Assembly (NCBI RefSeq): GCF_050920415.1
Contig: NZ_CP169309.1
DNA: 64,000 nucleotides
Reading direction: 5' to 3' (one strand)
Source of the DNA: Escherichia coli
GTDB lineage: Bacteria > Pseudomonadota > Gammaproteobacteria > Enterobacterales > Enterobacteriaceae
The notes beneath the pieces are model-generated. The model did no database searches. It had not been told where the DNA came from and saw only the letters and a list, made by a program, of their open reading frames with translations. Position 1 is the first letter of the stretch, and each line of letters opens with the position of its first letter. A program made the position numbers and the translations under genes. This document shows positions 8,554 through 64,000 of the stretch, piece after piece.

Positions 8554-8629
8554 GCCCGGATAGCTCAGTCGGTAGAGCAGGGGATTGAAAATCCCCGTGT
8601 CCTTGGTTCGATTCCGAGTCCGGGCACCA
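8554..8629 (+). tRNA. pheU: tRNA-Phe (anticodon GAA)
   Basis: Exact match to E. coli tRNA-Phe: GCCCGGATAGCTCAGTCGGTAGAGCAGGGGATTGAAAATCCCCGTGTCCTTGGTTCGATTCCGAGTCCGGGCACCA. Confidence 0.97.
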
Positions 8630-36278: not shown

Positions 36279-37370
36279 ATGCGTTTTCTGCGCCGACCAA
36301 TATCGCTGCGCCAACGGCTGATATTGACCATTGGGGCCATTTTGTTGGTGTTTGAGTTGATCAGCGTCTTCTGGCTATGGCATGAAAGTACCGAGCAGAT
36401 TCAGCTGTTTGAGCAGGCGCTACGCGACAATCGTAACAACGATCGCCACATCATGCGTGAGATCCGCGAGGCGGTCGCCAGCCTGATTGTCCCTGGCGTC
36501 TTTATGGTCAGCCTGACGCTATTTATCTGCTATCAGGCGGTACGCCGCATCACCCGCCCGCTGGCGGAGCTGCAAAAAGAGCTGGAAGCGCGCACCGCCG
36601 ACAACTTAACGCCCATTGCCATTCACAGCGCCACCCTCGAAATCGAAGCGGTGGTTTCAGCGTTAAACGATCTGGTCAGTCGCCTGACCAACACGCTGGA
36701 TAACGAAAGGTTGTTTACCGCTGACGTCGCGCACGAACTGCGAACGCCACTGGCGGGGGTGCGTTTGCATCTGGAACTGCTGGCGAAAACGCATCACATT
36801 GATGTAGCACCGTTAGTGGCACGACTTGATCAGATGATGGAGAGTGTCTCCCAGCTACTGCAACTGGCGCGTGCCGGACAGTCATTTTCTTCCGGTAATT
36901 ATCAACATGTAAAACTGCTGGAAGATGTCATTCTCCCCTCGTATGACGAACTCAGTACCATGCTCGACCAGCGCCAGCAAACCCTGCTATTGCCAGAGAG
37001 CGCCGCCGACATCATCGTTCAGGGTGATGCAACCCTGCTGCGGATGTTATTGCGAAACCTGGTAGAAAATGCCCATCGTTACAGCCCGCAAGGCAGCAAC
37101 ATTATGATTAAGCTGCAAGACGATGGCGGAGCGGTCATGGCCGTTGAAGATGAAGGACCGGGTATTGATGAGAGTAAATGCGGGGAGTTGAGTAAAGCGT
37201 TTGTACGAATGGACAGCCGTTATGGCGGGATTGGTCTGGGGTTAAGTATTGTCAGCCGCATTACACAGTTGCATCACGGGCAGTTTTTCCTGCAAAACCG
37301 GCAAGAGACTTCCGGCACGCGGGCCTGGGTACGGCTGAAGAAAGATCAGTACGTGGCAAACCAGATATAA
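36279..37370 (+). CDS. basS: Sensor histidine kinase BasS/PmrB (363 aa)
   Basis: HisKA (DVAHELRTPLAG) and HATPase domains; ATG at 36279; ORF track begins three codons earlier (36270). Confidence 0.9.
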   Translation: MRFLRRPISLRQRLILTIGAILLVFELISVFWLWHESTEQIQLFEQALRDNRNNDRHIMREIREAVASLIVPGVFMVSLTLFICYQAVRRITRPLAELQKELEARTADNLTPIAIHSATLEIEAVVSALNDLVSRLTNTLDNERLFTADVAHELRTPLAGVRLHLELLAKTHHIDVAPLVARLDQMMESVSQLLQLARAGQSFSSGNYQHVKLLEDVILPSYDELSTMLDQRQQTLLLPESAADIIVQGDATLLRMLLRNLVENAHRYSPQGSNIMIKLQDDGGAVMAVEDEGPGIDESKCGELSKAFVRMDSRYGGIGLGLSIVSRITQLHHGQFFLQNRQETSGTRAWVRLKKDQYVANQI

Positions 37371-37439
37371 AGAAAGCTGCTGACCACCAGCACGCTGAAC
37401 ACGGTAGTTAAACTTTCATAAACACGGTTTTTCATTGCA

Positions 37440-37465
37440 CTCTCCTCCGTTAACCTGGAGGAGAG
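37440..37465. terminator. Stem-loop between convergent basS and proP
   Basis: Inverted repeat ctcctcc / ggaggag between convergent 3' ends. Confidence 0.45.
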
Positions 37466-37548
37466 TATGCGTGTCAGAGATTAAGTGAACCTTAAGAGTC
37501 AATTGTTGGCCTGATGAGACAGCATCCCATCAGGCAATTCGTTTCAGC

Positions 37549-39314: not shown

Positions 39315-40193
39315 TTACGCCAAATTTACAGAGAAGATTTCCTCGACCATTGCCCCCACCAAACGCTGCGCTGAACAGAGTCGTGGCATCCCCAGCGCGA
39401 CAGTTTGCCAGCGTTGGGTCACTGACCAGCAAACGGGTTGTTTATCTGCCGTGGACCACTTTCCCAGCCAACTTAAAAAATCAGCATGATCCCCACCCGT
39501 CGGGGCGGTTGAAGAGGTAAACCACTGATGGTAATAGTGACGCGTGGTCGTTGCCGCATTAATACTCTCTGCCAGATGTTGTGTCGCTTTCTCGCGCAAA
39601 TCACCCAGCAACAACGCCACCGCTTGCGGGCTTCCTAGACGGCAGGCATCGCCAAATGCCCCCCAGCGCAGTTCCTCCAGAACGATAAAACAGCGCCCAG
39701 GCAACGACCAGGCGTTATACGCACCAGCACGCCAGCGGGTAAAAATTTGCTCACTCTGATCACCGGCCTGTACCAGTAATCCTCGTTGCGTTAACGCCTT
39801 TTCCTTCCAGCGACAACGGGCTGAAAACAACTCATACAAGGCGGCAATTTGCTGGGGGAGCTCCGGGAAAGCAGAGTGCTGGCGGTGATCCATTTTTTGC
39901 AGCAGCGCCAGATGCTGCGCGATCTGCGTCAGCGCCAGATGACCGGGATCCAGCATCGACGCCAGTTTTTCCACCAATGTCAGACGCAGGCTAAGCGGCG
40001 CATTTAACATGCCGCCGTTCGTCCATGCCTGAAGCTGCACGCGCGCAAGAAGTTCCTGCATCAGTCGTTCACGAAACTGCTGCTGATGGGCTTGTGGATG
40101 GCGGGCATCATCGCCCTGCGCCAGATCCACTAAAAAGCGGGAATGAATCGACTCCAGCACGCGACCGGGGCCGTCCAGTAACGTCTTGGTCAA
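39315..40193 (-). CDS. yjcZ: YjcZ, protein of unknown function co-transcribed with crfC (292 aa)
   Basis: ORF directly downstream of and overlapping crfC by 4 bp; conserved neighbourhood. Confidence 0.75.
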   Translation of the reverse strand: MTKTLLDGPGRVLESIHSRFLVDLAQGDDARHPQAHQQQFRERLMQELLARVQLQAWTNGGMLNAPLSLRLTLVEKLASMLDPGHLALTQIAQHLALLQKMDHRQHSAFPELPQQIAALYELFSARCRWKEKALTQRGLLVQAGDQSEQIFTRWRAGAYNAWSLPGRCFIVLEELRWGAFGDACRLGSPQAVALLLGDLREKATQHLAESINAATTTRHYYHQWFTSSTAPTGGDHADFLSWLGKWSTADKQPVCWSVTQRWQTVALGMPRLCSAQRLVGAMVEEIFSVNLA

Positions 40194-42418
40194 TATCGTT
40201 CTGCCGTGAAAAGTGTTTGAATATCATCGCGTAACAGCTGAGCGTCGGTGTAAATCCAGCCATGAGTCATCACAGTCTGCTGCAATTGCTGCTGCATCAG
40301 CCTGACCACCGATTCATTTTGTTGACGCAGAGCCAGACTTTCGCATAAACGCGTCTGTAATTCCGTCAAACATGAAGCGAACTCAGCGAAAAAAGTATTC
40401 ATGCCTGCCGTAACAGATTCATCGACCTGCTCTGCCAGAACTTTAGCCATTTGTTGGCAATAAAGATCGACTTCTGCGCTTAATGCTCGTTGCAACGCAC
40501 TGTAATCAACCGTCTCTATCGGGGATTTCTCATTTCCCCGTCCCCAGTCGGGCTGATTCAACCAGCGCGAAAAAGTCTCACGCACAACGCCTAAACGCGT
40601 GCTCTGCTCGTCCATTGCGTCCTGGCGCGAAATGACTTCACTGAACAGCTGGCGAGTGTTGAAGTGGGGAACTGCGCCGTGAAAAACAGGAAAATGAAAC
40701 CCAGGACGAAACCCTGACTCGCTCAATTCCATTTTGACTTGTTGCTCAATGGGCCGAATAACATCGGTTAACACCCGGCAAAGAGTGGATTCAAGCTCGG
40801 CAAAACGCAGCGTAAAGTCGCGACTGATGGTGTTCTGCGCCGTCTGTAACAGTGTCTCACAGCAGGTACGAATCTCGCTTAATGACCCCGAATCATCCTG
40901 AAACAACGCGGCTAACTGGGCATTCACCGCATCTTGCTGTTGACGCAGAAAGAGGTTGGCGGAGGTCAGGGCCAGCTCGATTTCATGTTTAATCTCGCCG
41001 CTCACCTGAGCCTGATTGAGTTGAAATAGCTGCAAACTTTCTTCGATCTGGTGGATATTTTGCCGCAATTGTTCACAAGCGACGTTTAACCCGTGCGCAC
41101 GAAAATCCAGGTATTCCCGCGCCTGCTGCGCGTAATTCAACAGTTTATGCGCGGCAGATCGCAGAGCATACAACGAGGCGTTAGCGTAAGCGGCATGAAG
41201 CAACGCCTGAATTGGCTGGGCGAACAGCGAATCTTCCCACAACTGATCGGCAGCATGACGAATATGTTCGAGGTCCGCCAGGTCGGCATGACGCCAGCGC
41301 CTGCCGAGCGCGGCATGGGCAAAATCTTCCACCCAGCGTTGTTGCTCTGGCGCGGGTAACTTACCGTTGTTGGCTAACTCATTACGCGCCCGATTCGCCA
41401 GGTAGCCCCACATCGACGACACTGGAAATATCTGCTGTGGCGTAATACAGCCTTTCATCAGCGTCCCGGAAATCAGTGCCCGCACCTGGTCGGCGTCGTC
41501 ACTGTTACGATCCTGTTGATCGAACTTATTGACCAGCACATACAGCGGCACCGATTGCCCCACCGCCAAAATCGCCTCACGGACCTCTTCATCGGAGATC
41601 GATTTCAGTTGCGTATAATCCAGCACCGCCAGTACCGCCGAGGCGCGAGCCAGCTGCTGGTTAAGCATTTTTTGCAGATGCGGTTGCCCGGCTTCATTTG
41701 GCCCAGGGGTATCCAGTAACGTCAACTGACCGGGATAACTCTCCAGCCCCGCCAGATGGACAAACTCCACTTCAATCACGGGAATATGCTCAATGGCGGC
41801 GTAAGCAGAAAAAGGAAAATCGACGTCCAGCGCCTTCGCCAGTCGCACCAAATCATTCAAACTTTTCAGACAATGAAAAATAGGCTGGGCACCCAGATAA
41901 TATTTTTCGAAAGCGACGCCATTTTCGATCCGCTGCATAAGCGCACGCATATCTTTATCTATTTCCAGCACATCGGTCAGATGCTTAATATCGCAGTCAC
42001 GCAGGCGCTGTTGTAATTGTTGAATTAAACAGTCGATTGGCGCGACATGTGAAAAATGCAGTACCGGTTCTTTTTGCCCGGGCGTATGGCGAATAAGCGT
42101 CGGCAGCGCAGTCATTGGGCGATTGCGATTAGGCAGAACCTCCGTACCAACAATGGCATTAATGGTGGTTGATTTCCCTGCTTTCATAGTACCGACAATT
42201 GCCAGCACCATTTCCAGTCGGGAAATTTTACGCAACTCATTATTCAGCATCGCGTGACGTTCGGCGATATTAGGCTGACTCCAGGGTAAAGCCAGTTGTG
42301 GCGCATCGTCTCCGGGTACAGAGAGAGGCATTTTTTCTAGTAACTGCAACTGTTGGCGAGAAAGCTGTAACAGGCGTTCAGCCTCCTGACTTAACTCATA
42401 CAGGGTCTGTGTGTACAT
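40190..42418 (-). CDS. crfC: Bacterial dynamin-like GTPase CrfC/YjdA (742 aa)
   Basis: N-terminal P-loop (GTMKAGKSTTINAIVG) and dynamin-type GTPase motifs followed by long helical region. Confidence 0.8.
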   Translation of the reverse strand: MYTQTLYELSQEAERLLQLSRQQLQLLEKMPLSVPGDDAPQLALPWSQPNIAERHAMLNNELRKISRLEMVLAIVGTMKAGKSTTINAIVGTEVLPNRNRPMTALPTLIRHTPGQKEPVLHFSHVAPIDCLIQQLQQRLRDCDIKHLTDVLEIDKDMRALMQRIENGVAFEKYYLGAQPIFHCLKSLNDLVRLAKALDVDFPFSAYAAIEHIPVIEVEFVHLAGLESYPGQLTLLDTPGPNEAGQPHLQKMLNQQLARASAVLAVLDYTQLKSISDEEVREAILAVGQSVPLYVLVNKFDQQDRNSDDADQVRALISGTLMKGCITPQQIFPVSSMWGYLANRARNELANNGKLPAPEQQRWVEDFAHAALGRRWRHADLADLEHIRHAADQLWEDSLFAQPIQALLHAAYANASLYALRSAAHKLLNYAQQAREYLDFRAHGLNVACEQLRQNIHQIEESLQLFQLNQAQVSGEIKHEIELALTSANLFLRQQQDAVNAQLAALFQDDSGSLSEIRTCCETLLQTAQNTISRDFTLRFAELESTLCRVLTDVIRPIEQQVKMELSESGFRPGFHFPVFHGAVPHFNTRQLFSEVISRQDAMDEQSTRLGVVRETFSRWLNQPDWGRGNEKSPIETVDYSALQRALSAEVDLYCQQMAKVLAEQVDESVTAGMNTFFAEFASCLTELQTRLCESLALRQQNESVVRLMQQQLQQTVMTHGWIYTDAQLLRDDIQTLFTAERY

Positions 42419-42819
42419 AGAAAATTTTTCCTTAAAGCAAATTTTATTACTTTTATTTAGCCAGATTGTTTTTGAGTTCTGTTTTCGGCTTTTATAATTA
42501 CTGCAAGAAATAATTTTATATTTAGAGTGTTGTTTTTTATTAGAATAAATAACGTCTTCCGATACGTTTAAAACGTCAGAAAGATAAAAATATCATTTGA
42601 ATTAAAAAAAGAACAAGTAGAGCATTAACCTTATCTTAAATAATAAATGGAGGCAAAAAGATTATTTTCTTTTTGCGTTTCCTTTCAAATGAAAACGATC
42701 GTCGTCTAAAATCAGCAGTACCCCCGACAAACTCAGGGATTTTGTGTATAATTGCGGCCTTTTTCGGCAATCTGCCGTTTTTTGGCGCTTTTGCCCTGCT
42801 GACTTTTGAGGAAATCCAC

Positions 42820-43155
42820 ATGTCATTACCACACTGCCCAAAATGCAACTCCGAATACACCTACGAAGATAACGGCATGTACATCTGCCCGGAATGTGCC
42901 TACGAATGGAACGACGCAGAACCTGCACAGGAAAGCGACGAGCTGATCGTTAAAGATGCTAACGGCAATCTGCTGGCTGACGGCGACAGCGTTACCATCA
43001 TTAAAGATCTGAAGGTGAAAGGTAGCTCTTCGATGCTGAAGATCGGTACCAAAGTGAAAAACATTCGCCTGGTTGAAGGCGACCACAACATCGATTGCAA
43101 AATCGACGGTTTTGGTCCGATGAAACTGAAATCTGAGTTTGTGAAAAAGAACTGA
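42820..43155 (+). CDS. phnA: PhnA-family zinc-ribbon protein (YjdM, 111 aa)
   Basis: [32 protein letters not shown]... CxxC-x-CxxC zinc ribbon; start at ATG 42820 within ORF 42673-43155. Confidence 0.85.
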
Positions 43156-43187: not shown

Positions 43188-43335
43188 CGGTAGGCCGGAT
43201 AAGGCGCTCGCGCCGCATCCGGCTACGGTGCCGACTGCCTGATGCGACGCTCGCGCGTCTTATCAGGCCTACAAATTCTCGCACCATCCGGCAACGGTGC
43301 CTAATGCGACGCTTACCGAGTCTTATCAGCCCCCG
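43188..43335. repeat. REP / BIME cluster (about three REP units in alternating orientation)
   Basis: Units gtaggccggataaggcgctcgcgccgcatccggc, gcctgatgcgacgctcgcgcgtcttatcaggcctac and a third partial unit match the E. coli REP consensus. Confidence 0.75.
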
Positions 43336-45926: not shown

Positions 45927-46706
45927 ATGCAAACCATCACCATCGCCCCACCCAAGCGCAGCTGGTTCTCGCTTCTGAGCTGGGCCATTGTTCTCGCCGT
46001 GCTGGTCGTCTCGTGGCAGGGCGCGGAAATGGCCCCGCTCACGCTGATTAAAGACGGCGGCAACATGGCGACGTTCGCCGCCGACTTCTTCCCGCCCGAT
46101 TTCAGCCAGTGGCAGGATTACCTCACCGAAATGGCCGTCACGCTGCAAATCGCCGTCTGGGGCACTGCGCTGGCAGTCGTTCTCTCCATCCCCTTCGGCC
46201 TGATGAGCGCCGAAAACCTGGTGCCGTGGTGGGTTTACCAGCCCGTTCGCCGCCTGATGGACGCCTGCCGCGCCATTAACGAGATGGTCTTCGCCATGCT
46301 GTTCGTGGTCGCCGTCGGTCTCGGTCCGTTCGCTGGCGTACTGGCGCTGTTTATCCACACCACCGGCGTGCTCTCCAAACTGCTTTCCGAAGCGGTGGAA
46401 GCGATTGAACCCGGCCCGGTGGAAGGCATTCGCGCCACCGGTGCCAATAAGCTCGAAGAGATCCTCTACGGCGTGCTGCCGCAGGTCATGCCGCTACTGA
46501 TTTCCTACTCACTCTATCGTTTCGAATCCAACGTGCGTTCCGCCACCGTTGTTGGCATGGTCGGCGCTGGCGGAATTGGCGTCACGCTGTGGGAAGCGAT
46601 TCGCGGTTTCCAGTTCCAGCAAACCTGCGCCCTGATGGTGCTGATTATCGTCACGGTCAGCCTGCTGGATTTCCTCTCTCAACGGTTGCGTAAGCACTTT
46701 ATCTGA
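45927..46706 (+). CDS. phnE: Phosphonate ABC transporter permease PhnE, uninterrupted frame (259 aa)
   Basis: Single continuous ORF with ABC permease EAA-like loop; no frameshift within the window. Confidence 0.9.
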
Positions 46707-63105: not shown

Positions 63106-64000
63106 ATGAAAAAAGTCGTCACGGTTTGCCCCTATTGCGCATCAGGTTGCAAAATCAACCTGGTCGTCGATAACGGCAAAATCGTCCGGGCGGAGGCAGC
63201 GCAGGGGAAAACCAACCAGGGTACCCTGTGTCTGAAGGGTTATTATGGCTGGGACTTCATTAACGATACCCAGATCCTGACCCCGCGCCTGAAAACCCCC
63301 ATGATCCGTCGCCAGCGTGGCGGCAAACTCGAACCTGTTTCCTGGGATGAGGCACTGAATTACGTTGCCGAGCGCCTGAGCGCCATCAAAGAGAAGTACG
63401 GTCCGGATGCCATCCAGACGACCGGCTCCTCGCGTGGTACGGGTAACGAAACCAACTATGTAATGCAAAAATTTGCGCGCGCCGTTATTGGTACCAATAA
63501 CGTTGACTGCTGCGCTCGTGTCTGACACGGCCCATCGGTTGCAGGTCTGCACCAATCGGTCGGTAATGGCGCAATGAGCAATGCTATTAACGAAATTGAT
63601 AATACCGATTTAGTGTTCGTTTTCGGGTACAACCCGGCGGATTCCCACCCTATCGTGGCGAATCACGTAATTAACGCTAAACGTAACGGGGCGAAAATTA
63701 TCGTCTGCGATCCGCGCAAAATTGAAACCGCGCGCATTGCTGACATGCACATTGCACTGAAAAACGGCTCGAATATCGCGCTGTTGAATGCGATGGGCCA
63801 TGTCATTATTGAAGAAAATCTGTACGACAAAGCGTTCGTCGCTTCCCGTACAGAAGGCTTTGAAGAGTATCGTAAAATCGTTGAAGGCTACACGCCGGAG
63901 TCGGTTGAAGATATCACCGGCGTTAGCGCCAGTGAGATTCGTCAGGCAGCGCGGATGTATGCCCAGGCGGAAAGCGCAGCCATTCTGTGGGGCATGGGTG
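63106..64000 (+). CDS. fdhF: Formate dehydrogenase H selenoprotein FdhF, 5' portion (truncated by window end); codon 140 is an in-frame TGA read as selenocysteine
   Basis: MKKVVTVCPYCASGCKINLVVDNGKIVRAEAAQGKTNQGTLCLKGYYGWDF... molybdopterin oxidoreductase N-terminus; frame continues unbroken after TGA at 63523-63525 to the window end (HGPSVAGLHQSVGNGAMSNAINEIDNTDLVFVFGYNPADSHPIV...). Confidence 0.93.
63526..63570 (+). other. SECIS stem-loop directing selenocysteine insertion at the fdhF UGA
   Basis: Immediately 3' of the TGA: cacggcccatcggttgcaggtctgcaccaatcggtcggtaatggc, matching the recalled fdhF SECIS hairpin. Confidence 0.8.

Follow-up and report, generated by a model that had tools for sequence, protein, structure and literature searches.

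The rdcA-rdcB operon of Escherichia coli: a core dynamin-like GTPase pair with mobile three-gene relatives

The closest described system is the rdcA-rdcB pair of Escherichia coli itself. Pfiffer et al. (2019) reported that RdcA and RdcB jointly activate DgcE, a diguanylate cyclase that governs biofilm formation; by genetics and two-hybrid assays both proteins are required for this activation, knockouts of rdcA, rdcB and dgcE are phenocopies of one another, and RdcA binds RdcB as well as the MASE1 domain of DgcE (PMC6510439). In the same study, an RdcA variant carrying T103D was non-functional and one carrying K82A remained active. In an independent transposon screen of 2026, rdcA and rdcB were among the genes hit in mutants with low c-di-GMP (PMC13031359). 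The support for the DgcE mechanism comes mainly from the genetics and two-hybrid data of one laboratory, plus one screen. GTP hydrolysis and self-assembly of RdcA were reported by Ozaki (2013), as relayed in PMC6510439 and PMC6374313, and the protein is described as soluble and devoid of a membrane-binding paddle, unlike bacterial dynamin-like proteins (PMC6510439, PMC6374313). The interactions, phenotypes and GTP model of RdcA and RdcB discussed here are taken from these papers.

We analysed a window of 64,000 nucleotides (the whole stretch of DNA studied), whose DNA is 100% identical to that of an E. coli chromosome. A sequence-only reading had described in it a dynamin-like GTPase of 742 residues and a partner of 292 residues, named them crfC-yjcZ, and considered the second gene to be translationally coupled to the first. 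Both open reading frames lie exactly where that reading had placed them, on the minus strand, and a RefSeq record 100% identical to the window DNA annotates both coding sequences with identical ends. The features of the locus are the following.

39315..40193, minus strand: rdcB (yjcZ), predicted all-helical partner protein of 292 residues with a TTG start (open reading frame; RefSeq CDS; PF13990)
40190..40193, minus strand: stop/start overlap TTGA of 4 nt, joining the TGA stop of rdcA and the TTG start of rdcB (sequence)
40190..42418, minus strand: rdcA (crfC, yjdA), dynamin-like GTPase of 742 residues with an ATG start (open reading frame; RefSeq CDS; NF007368, Dynamin_N)
40418..40445, minus strand: intragenic FliA (sigma-28) promoter driving rdcB, TAAAGTTC-N11-GTCGATGA (exact 28/28 match to Table 2 of PMC4183435)
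41519..41530, minus strand: G4 motif NKFD, residues 297-300 of RdcA (aligns to NAWD of 2j68)
41702..41713, minus strand: G3 motif DTPG, residues 236-239 (aligns to DSPG of 2j68)
42110..42112, minus strand: G2 catalytic threonine T103, in RPMTALP (aligns to PCTAV of 2j68)
42170..42193, minus strand: G1 motif or P-loop GTMKAGKS, residues 76-83, including K82 (aligns to GDMKRGKS of the bacterial dynamin-like protein BDLP, 2j68)
42284..42298, minus strand: beta-clamp-binding motif QLALP, residues 41-45 (motif located here; described in PMC6374313)
42419..42819, no strand: AT-rich divergent control region between rdcA and yjdM, 401 bp (31.2% GC; H-NS reported)
42820..43155, plus strand: yjdM (old name phnA), zinc-ribbon protein, a neighbour outside the system (PF03831, PF08274, TIGR00686)

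The identity of the pair is not due to chance: RdcA scores 66.6 bits on Pfam Dynamin_N, where the cut-off is 27 (E=3.6e-18), and 1583 bits on the NCBIfam CrfC equivalog NF007368, where it is 1146, residues 1-742 of 742 being covered, while RdcB matches Pfam PF13990 (YjcZ) over residues 21-287 with 468.7 bits against a gathering score of 27 (E=7.4e-141). Both the dynamin-like call and the gene names proposed from the sequence are thereby confirmed. The names crfC/rdcA and rdcB are those of the pair in RefSeq and in the K-12 annotation; RefSeq gives the YjcZ product as “diguanylate cyclase regulator RdcB”. The divergent neighbour, read as phnA, is indeed YjdM under its former name, and proP lies downstream of rdcB after a spacer of 263 bp. 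Of 5426 complete E. coli genomes, 5419 (99.9%) carry the rdcA-rdcB locus. The analysis itself shows which genes these are, their motifs and junction, the sequence of the promoter, and the conservation and synteny of the locus, which is very probably the core-genome rdcA-rdcB operon, in which the dynamin-like GTPase RdcA and its partner RdcB activate DgcE. The pair consists of ordinary, previously studied E. coli genes, and the initial observation was correct but already known.

Motifs G2 to G4, whose lack would have spoken against a dynamin-like GTPase, are all there (T103, DTPG and NKFD) in alignment with 2j68, and the four motifs G1-G4 are invariant among 21 RdcA orthologues. The AlphaFold model of RdcA built from the 21-sequence alignment leaves the G domain unfolded and is poor overall (pLDDT 55.6, pTM 0.34), with long helices predicted at residues 402-568 and 639-739 (pLDDT about 75-89).

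For RdcB, the AlphaFold model is all-alpha (pLDDT 75.9); no solved relative was found for this fold, and a PDB sequence search with RdcB returned no match (best E 0.66). Genomes were scanned for YjcZ relatives with a 16-sequence subclade, the 59-sequence family alignment being too diverse for this purpose. The block 246-275 is the most conserved part of the protein and, at the same time, a low-confidence part of the model. As P253 and P270 are invariant family-wide, even in members with a different third gene, this block would serve to bind a partner, the dynamin being the likeliest one, and the failure of AlphaFold to place it is what would be expected of a segment that folds on its partner. 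The function of the partner had been called poorly defined from the sequence; this is accurate for the molecular mechanism only, where RdcB may be a GAP, a nucleotide release factor or an adaptor, since the role of RdcB in DgcE activation is published (PMC6510439, PMC13031359).

Several layers of control converge on the pair. The junction between the genes reads ...GAA CGA TAT TGA CC..., and the same -4 overlap occurs in 64 of 79 related loci (41 of 49 with two genes and 23 of 30 with three), where the start codon at the overlap is usually ATG. The translational coupling proposed from the sequence is therefore plausible, but that proposal missed the FliA promoter. The latter lies inside rdcA, and the operon therefore has more than a single promoter: some of the rdcB mRNA is barred from coupling, and rdcB expression does not depend solely on rdcA translation. 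FliA-dependent reporter activity of the yjcZ promoter has been reported (bioRxiv 10.1101/188474), and TAAAGCTTT..GTCGAT is retained in most enterobacterial orthologues, a TTR leucine codon within it being consistently kept. The possibility of a further FliA promoter, upstream of rdcA, was dropped from consideration, the earlier prediction being stated to be incorrect in PMC4183435. The divergent spacer (42419-42819), read as an AT-rich region of roughly 400 bp, measures 401 bp and has a GC content of 31.2%, which falls to 24.5% in 200-bp windows, whereas the window as a whole has 51.4%; H-NS binding and repression of crfC have been reported (PMC6374313). Between 39000 and 42900, scans gave seven sigma-70 promoter candidates (4.3±2.2 in shuffled sequence) and six terminators (5.1±2.2), and because neither count exceeds that of shuffled sequence, no rdcA promoter or rdcB terminator was assigned.

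According to the model that emerges mostly from the literature, RdcA is a soluble dynamin-like GTPase forming dimers or oligomers, and the small, all-helical RdcB binds it. By the published genetics, the complex docks on the membrane-embedded MASE1 domain of DgcE and renders the enzyme active, whereupon c-di-GMP rises and, through PdeR-DgcM-MlrA, csgD, curli and cellulose are switched on. Nucleotide-free RdcA is the active form and GTP-locked RdcA is inactive, hence the proposal that the input signal is the drop of the GTP pool at stationary-phase entry. In a second reported activity, RdcA, as CrfC, binds the beta clamp through QLALP and aids nucleoid partitioning. Expression of rdcAB is set at three levels, by H-NS repression of the AT-rich upstream region, by an extra rdcB transcript from the FliA promoter inside rdcA, and by the conserved 4-nt stop/start overlap that would couple rdcB translation to that of rdcA.

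Other explanations deserve to be weighed against this one. The role of CrfC might be primary, i.e., a clamp-binding dynamin-like protein would tether sister replication forks and position nucleoids, YjcZ being an accessory and c-di-GMP control secondary. QLALP is found at residues 41-45 of RdcA, the curated NCBI name of the large protein is “clamp-binding protein CrfC”, and the protein has been described as binding the clamp and as localising to nucleoid poles in a manner that needs HU and SlmA, while delta-crfC and Q41A mutants give anucleate cells (PMC6374313). However, the glutamine of the clamp motif is not conserved, other enterobacterial genera having VLPLHF, with only an L-x-L-x-[FW] core retained; crfC deletion leaves the growth rate unaffected, clamp binding is independent of GTP, and plasmid expression lies behind much of the in vivo work on CrfC (PMC6510439). 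Furthermore, the CrfC papers give YjcZ no role (it has 0 mentions in PMC6374313), and PMC6510439 itself argues that the replication role of RdcA is secondary. We consider the primacy of clamp binding doubtful, the two roles not being mutually exclusive. As for expression, rdcB could be effectively independent, with its own FliA promoter and its own translation, the 4-nt overlap being incidental: the intragenic promoter is experimentally supported and present in the window, and its TAAAGCTTT and GTCGAT elements persist in most orthologues. Nevertheless, the -4 overlap recurs in the 64 of 79 loci mentioned above, which are very divergent and most of which would not be expected to share the FliA promoter. 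In Escherichia, rdcB has a weak TTG start, in front of which no clear Shine-Dalgarno sequence was evident, favouring reliance on upstream ribosomes, and the fact that RdcA and RdcB bind each other and are needed together fits stoichiometric co-translation (PMC6510439). Independence of rdcB is thus unlikely, and coupling and the FliA promoter are probably both operating routes to RdcB.

A different set of considerations stems from the family as a whole. A CrfC-like dynamin gene stands immediately upstream of the YjcZ relative in 80 of 80 genome loci, and the dynamin-YjcZ pairing is ancient. Within Enterobacteriaceae the two-gene pair is syntenic with yjdM and proP, and outside this family it is always accompanied by a third gene encoding a patatin phospholipase; at each of the 31 non-core loci this gene is intact and overlaps the yjcZ homologue. 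The three-gene cassette of E. coli and E. albertii sits on CP4-like integrative islands, beside DNA methylase, antirestriction and toxin-antitoxin genes. A tblastn search of the whole window for a patatin homologue found none, and the pair in the window is not the three-gene cassette. This context raises the idea that rdcAB is what is left of a mobile module for membrane attack or phage defence and still acts mainly in a stress or phage response, with DgcE activation as a side effect. The intact patatin gene, the island neighbours and the occurrence of the cassette on 44 plasmids speak in its favour, together with the description of the cassette as a putative defence operon induced in lysogens (PMC12922286) and weak matches of CrfC to LeoBC and LeoA from the Eleos defence system. 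On the other hand, the defence role of the cassette is itself putative, the window pair has no patatin gene, and reports of rdcAB mention no phage phenotype; the PADLOC matches (24 bits) are far below a meaningful score, and the PADLOC defence library gave no match for RdcB/YjcZ. Searching the literature for a dynamin-patatin defence system yielded descriptive mentions but nothing specific. The rdcAB pair is fixed at one syntenic chromosomal site across Enterobacteriaceae and nearly universal in E. coli, which is the behaviour of a housekeeping regulator and not of a defence island. A defence function of rdcAB is therefore very improbable. Another reading is that core rdcAB is a domesticated derivative of a mobile three-gene module in which the effector was exchanged, the RdcB-family proteins being adaptors that let a membrane-directed effector respond to the nucleotide state of the GTPase. 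The mobile version may use the phospholipase as this effector, and the core version of the enterobacteria the MASE1 domain of DgcE. In a midpoint-rooted neighbour-joining tree of dynamin N-terminal regions, the two-gene loci (a single clade, 50 of 50) are nested within the three-gene diversity, and their sister is the three-gene locus of Budvicia; in the YjcZ tree, the direction between the two- and three-gene forms is not resolved. The conserved RdcB block 246-275, which AlphaFold fails to place, also fits this reading. Domestication is accordingly a tentative reading, to which we would lend somewhat less than even weight.

As originally worded, little was at stake in the observation, for it concerned a named, experimentally studied operon whose partner gene has had a physiological role since 2019. 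What is added here is the RdcB fold without a solved relative, its conserved block of low model confidence, the family-conserved junction overlap and the third, patatin gene; the three-gene cassette had received an earlier mention in a 2026 paper. A strictly two-gene, syntenic core version thus stands next to a mobile one that has three genes and an intact phospholipase, the latter in about half of E. coli genomes. Their comparison offers a concrete handle on the role of RdcB and on the possible origin of a signalling module in mobile cargo.

Compared with the known systems, the window pair is closest to RdcA/RdcB of E. coli K-12 (b4109-b4110), with which it shares the neighbours (yjdM upstream and proP downstream), the gene lengths and the TTGA junction. 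RdcA is identical at 726 of 742 residues, its 16 substitutions falling between residues 346 and 692 and 12 of them in the C-terminal half, predicted to be helical (465-692); RdcB is identical at 277 of 292 residues, with 15 substitutions scattered over the protein. These are strain-level substitutions only: G1-G4, the clamp motif and the family-invariant RdcB residues are untouched, and the functional motifs and the FliA promoter are identical.

The island and plasmid cassette [quoted passage not shown] (e.g., E. coli O121 RM8352 I3S_RS16200-16210 and E. albertii L029) resembles rdcAB in its first two genes, which are homologous, in identical order and with overlapping junctions. Its dynamin is 41-47% identical to RdcA across the N-terminal 470-560 residues, the C-terminal half not being alignable by BLAST, and its YjcZ protein is 21-33% identical to RdcB, with the common signature ELRWGxFGD. 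It differs by its overlapping third gene, whose patatin phospholipase keeps an intact GGGxxG / GxSxG / DG[AG] triad, and by being mobile and patchy: it is found in 2606 of 5426 E. coli genomes (48%), in up to five places per genome, and unlike rdcAB it is located outside the yjdM-proP site. The LeoABC/Eleos (“Dynamins”) anti-phage system likewise comprises dynamin-family GTPases in multi-gene island cassettes, but the PADLOC scores are marginal (LeoBC 24.1 bits, LeoA 21 bits) and its GTPases have other partner proteins.

Finally, with the bacterial dynamin-like proteins (Nostoc BDLP, 2j68; Campylobacter DLP1/2, 5owv) RdcA shares a dynamin-type G domain with aligned G1-G4 motifs; in RdcA, a long helical region is predicted to follow it. 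Only within the G domain is there sequence similarity to BDLP (about 55 residues, E=1.7e-6), and the outputs of RdcA described so far are protein partners, namely the MASE1 domain of DgcE and the beta clamp, rather than membrane remodelling.

The locus comprises two overlapping genes on the minus strand, divergent from a third one:

39315-40193, minus strand: rdcB (yjcZ), 292 aa, TTG start
40190-42418, minus strand: rdcA (crfC, yjdA), 742 aa, ATG start
42419-42819: rdcA-yjdM spacer, 401 bp, upstream of rdcA
42820-43155, plus strand: yjdM, a zinc-ribbon gene beyond the spacer, 111 aa

A minus-strand ORF check returned both ORFs exactly where a sequence-only reading had placed them, and the ORFs, the RefSeq and K-12 annotation and the profile matches confirm its gene identification; the gene it called phnA is yjdM under an old name (Pfam "PhnA domain", TIGR00686). 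RefSeq names the genes crfC, rdcB and yjdM, and the K-12 record calls the pair rdcA and rdcB. The 4.1-kb stretch carrying the pair matches an E. coli chromosome at 100% identity, and 5419 of 5426 complete E. coli genomes have it. The spacer, already described as AT-rich, has 31% GC against 51% across the window, with 200-bp windows as low as 24.5%, which fits the published repression of crfC transcription by H-NS (PMC6374313).

By every sequence test available, the large protein is a dynamin-like GTPase. It matches Pfam Dynamin_N (66.6 bits, cut-off 27) and, end to end, the curated CrfC equivalog NF007368 (1583 bits, cut-off 1146). Its motifs G1 (GTMKAGKS, residues 76-83, including K82), G2 (T103), G3 (DTPG, 236-239) and G4 (NKFD, 297-300) line up with their counterparts in Nostoc 2j68, a bacterial dynamin-like protein of solved structure, and are invariant in an alignment of 21 RdcA orthologues drawn from various enterobacterial genera. 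G2, G3 and G4, whose lack had been named beforehand as telling against a GTPase, are all present, so that the claim stands. Further along, where a putative helical stalk would lie, residues 402-568 and 639-739 are predicted to form long helices; the AlphaFold model is poor (shallow alignment, pLDDT 55.6). Escherichia RdcA lacks an 8-residue segment after residue 34 and a 32-residue segment after residue 519, the latter within the helical C-terminal half, both of which are found in the aligned orthologues (779-785 aa) from every other enterobacterial genus.

A second role has been published for this protein, as CrfC, in clamp binding and nucleoid partitioning (PMC6374313). The clamp-binding motif QLALP occupies residues 41-45; as published, QLALP(W) (residues 41-46; 42281-42298, minus strand), it aligns with VLPLHF in other genera. 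In this region conservation is limited to L-x-L-x-[FW], the glutamine occurring in Escherichia alone, which bears on the generality of the clamp function.

The small protein is YjcZ (Pfam PF13990, 468.7 bits), renamed RdcB, and the description of it as a partner of unknown function no longer applies, since its physiological role has been published (PMC6510439). Deleting rdcA, rdcB or dgcE gives the same phenotype, without additive effects, in macrocolony matrix, CsgD level, csgB::lacZ and c-di-GMP (Pfiffer et al., 2019, PMC6510439). RdcA self-associates and binds both RdcB and the MASE1 domain of the diguanylate cyclase DgcE; the GTPase-dead T103D variant is inactive and loses DgcE binding while keeping RdcB binding, and K82A, which does not bind GTP, is fully active (PMC6510439). 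In the model proposed there, nucleotide-free RdcA/RdcB would activate DgcE and GTP would be inhibitory, so that the drop in GTP on entering stationary phase would lead to DgcE activation; the authors suggested RdcB as a GTPase-activating or nucleotide-release factor (PMC6510439). Both genes also appear among the low-c-di-GMP mutants of an independent 2026 genome-wide sensor screen (PMC13031359).

The gene junction reads GAA CGA TAT TGA CC, and therefore the rdcB TTG start (40191-40193, minus strand) overlaps the rdcA TGA stop by 4 nt. The same overlap occurs in 41 of 49 two-gene (dynamin-YjcZ) loci and 23 of 30 three-gene (dynamin, YjcZ-like, patatin) loci, a conservation by which translational coupling appears well supported. 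Escherichia stands out by its TTG start codon; almost every other family member has ATG within the same ATGA overlap. Inspection of the sequence before the TTG start revealed no clear Shine-Dalgarno sequence. A single promoter plus coupling does not fully describe the pair. A FliA binding site within yjdA drives yjcZ, and the same paper calls a FliA promoter previously predicted upstream of yjdA incorrect (Fitzgerald et al., 2014, PMC4183435); the FliA dependence of the intragenic site was confirmed by reporter fusions (bioRxiv 10.1101/188474). In the window it precedes the rdcB start by about 225 nt:

40418-40445, minus strand: intragenic FliA site, TAAAGTTCTGGCAGAGCAGGTCGATGAA, 28 nt, zero mismatches to the site in PMC4183435

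TAAAGCTTT and GTCGAT recur at this offset in the majority of enterobacterial orthologues, with a spacer that varies at synonymous sites.

Several other elements lie in the window:

8554-8626, plus strand: one tRNA gene
37339-37504, minus strand: STnc630 sRNA match (Rfam, 181.6 bits), covering pmrR, a small annotated ORF that lies between pmrB and proP
43193-43269, plus strand: naRNA4 (CssrE, REP325), one copy just downstream of yjdM (Rfam RF02564, 99 bits)
45927-46706, plus strand: phnE, 780 bp, intact in the identical RefSeq record, whereas in K-12 it is a pseudogene (phnE1)
63518-63572, plus strand: bacterial SECIS element (RF01988, 87 bits), indicating a selenoprotein gene

The tRNA gene and the SECIS element are both far from rdcA-rdcB. 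K-12 has about 445 bp extra at the naRNA4 spot and the naRNA4 stretch matches there a second time, which suggests a longer repeat array. Between rdcB and proP the spacer is 263 bp in E. coli, whereas in Citrobacter (locus L066:6868-7878, minus strand, and equivalent loci) a 336-aa membrane-protein ORF stands there on the opposite strand. In most of the remaining genera outside Escherichia, too, proP begins 0.7-2.1 kb after rdcB, typically at about 1.7 kb.

The RdcB family is small: it makes up 230 of the 90%-identity clusters in a set of 5.8 billion proteins, an exhaustive HMMER search of 1.84 billion proteins yields 202 representatives at 50% identity, and 130 of 100,044 species genomes have a member. 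Its most conserved block is the following:

39369-39458, minus strand: RdcB residues 246-275, PVCWSVTQRWQTVALGMPRLCSA

Since this block is the most conserved, residues 246-269 are modelled with pLDDT below 50, and P253 and P270 are invariant family-wide, it is a candidate partner-binding segment.

Metagenome contigs also contain distant relatives of YjcZ (21-33% identity), encoded after a 780-840-aa Dynamin_N protein and followed by an overlapping patatin gene. A scan with one genome per species gave 80 loci that split cleanly into two clades. The Enterobacteriaceae clade has 49 loci, every one of them dynamin-YjcZ only and syntenic with yjdM and, where the locus is long enough, with proP; all 31 of the distant clade are dynamin-YjcZ-patatin, in Pseudomonas, Allochromatium, Aquaspirillum, Macromonas, Gallionella, Pantoea, Budvicia, Escherichia albertii and others. 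The patatin genes keep GGGxxG, GxSxG and DG[AG] in 31/31, and the cassette dynamin is 41-47% identical to RdcA across the first 470-560 residues and not alignable further on.

The cassette has overlapping junctions and is paralogous to rdcAB. Absent from the 64-kb window, it was located in loci of other genomes, at L029:3578-7943 (E. albertii), L089:9001-13366 (E. coli O121), L009-L038 and L054. In E. albertii and O121 it sits in CP4-like integrative islands, with a YeeP-like GTPase on one side and DUF932, antirestriction and YeeU/CbtA genes on the other, adjoining DNA methylase or tellurite-resistance genes. Of 5426 complete E. coli genomes, 2606 carry it, in up to five places per genome; it also occurs on 44 plasmids, and none was found on phage records. 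PADLOC has no models for it. The literature lists its genes on an O118 island (PMC13182975) and goes no further than describing it as a putative defence operon induced in lysogens, about 30% identical to core RdcAB and suggested to act in phage defence (PMC12922286).

In midpoint-rooted neighbour-joining trees of the dynamin and YjcZ proteins, the two-gene loci form one clade (50/50). This clade is nested within the three-gene diversity in the dynamin tree, with a three-gene Budvicia locus as sister, and the root of the YjcZ tree falls between the two groups; the trees therefore only suggest that the core rdcAB pair arose with loss of the patatin gene. The comparison of two-gene and three-gene loci suggests that RdcB could act as a general adaptor linking a dynamin-like GTPase to a membrane-directed effector. 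The remaining novelty is modest, concerning the mechanism of RdcB and these comparative data; rdcA-rdcB is an already known and already named system, whose partner protein has a defined physiological role.
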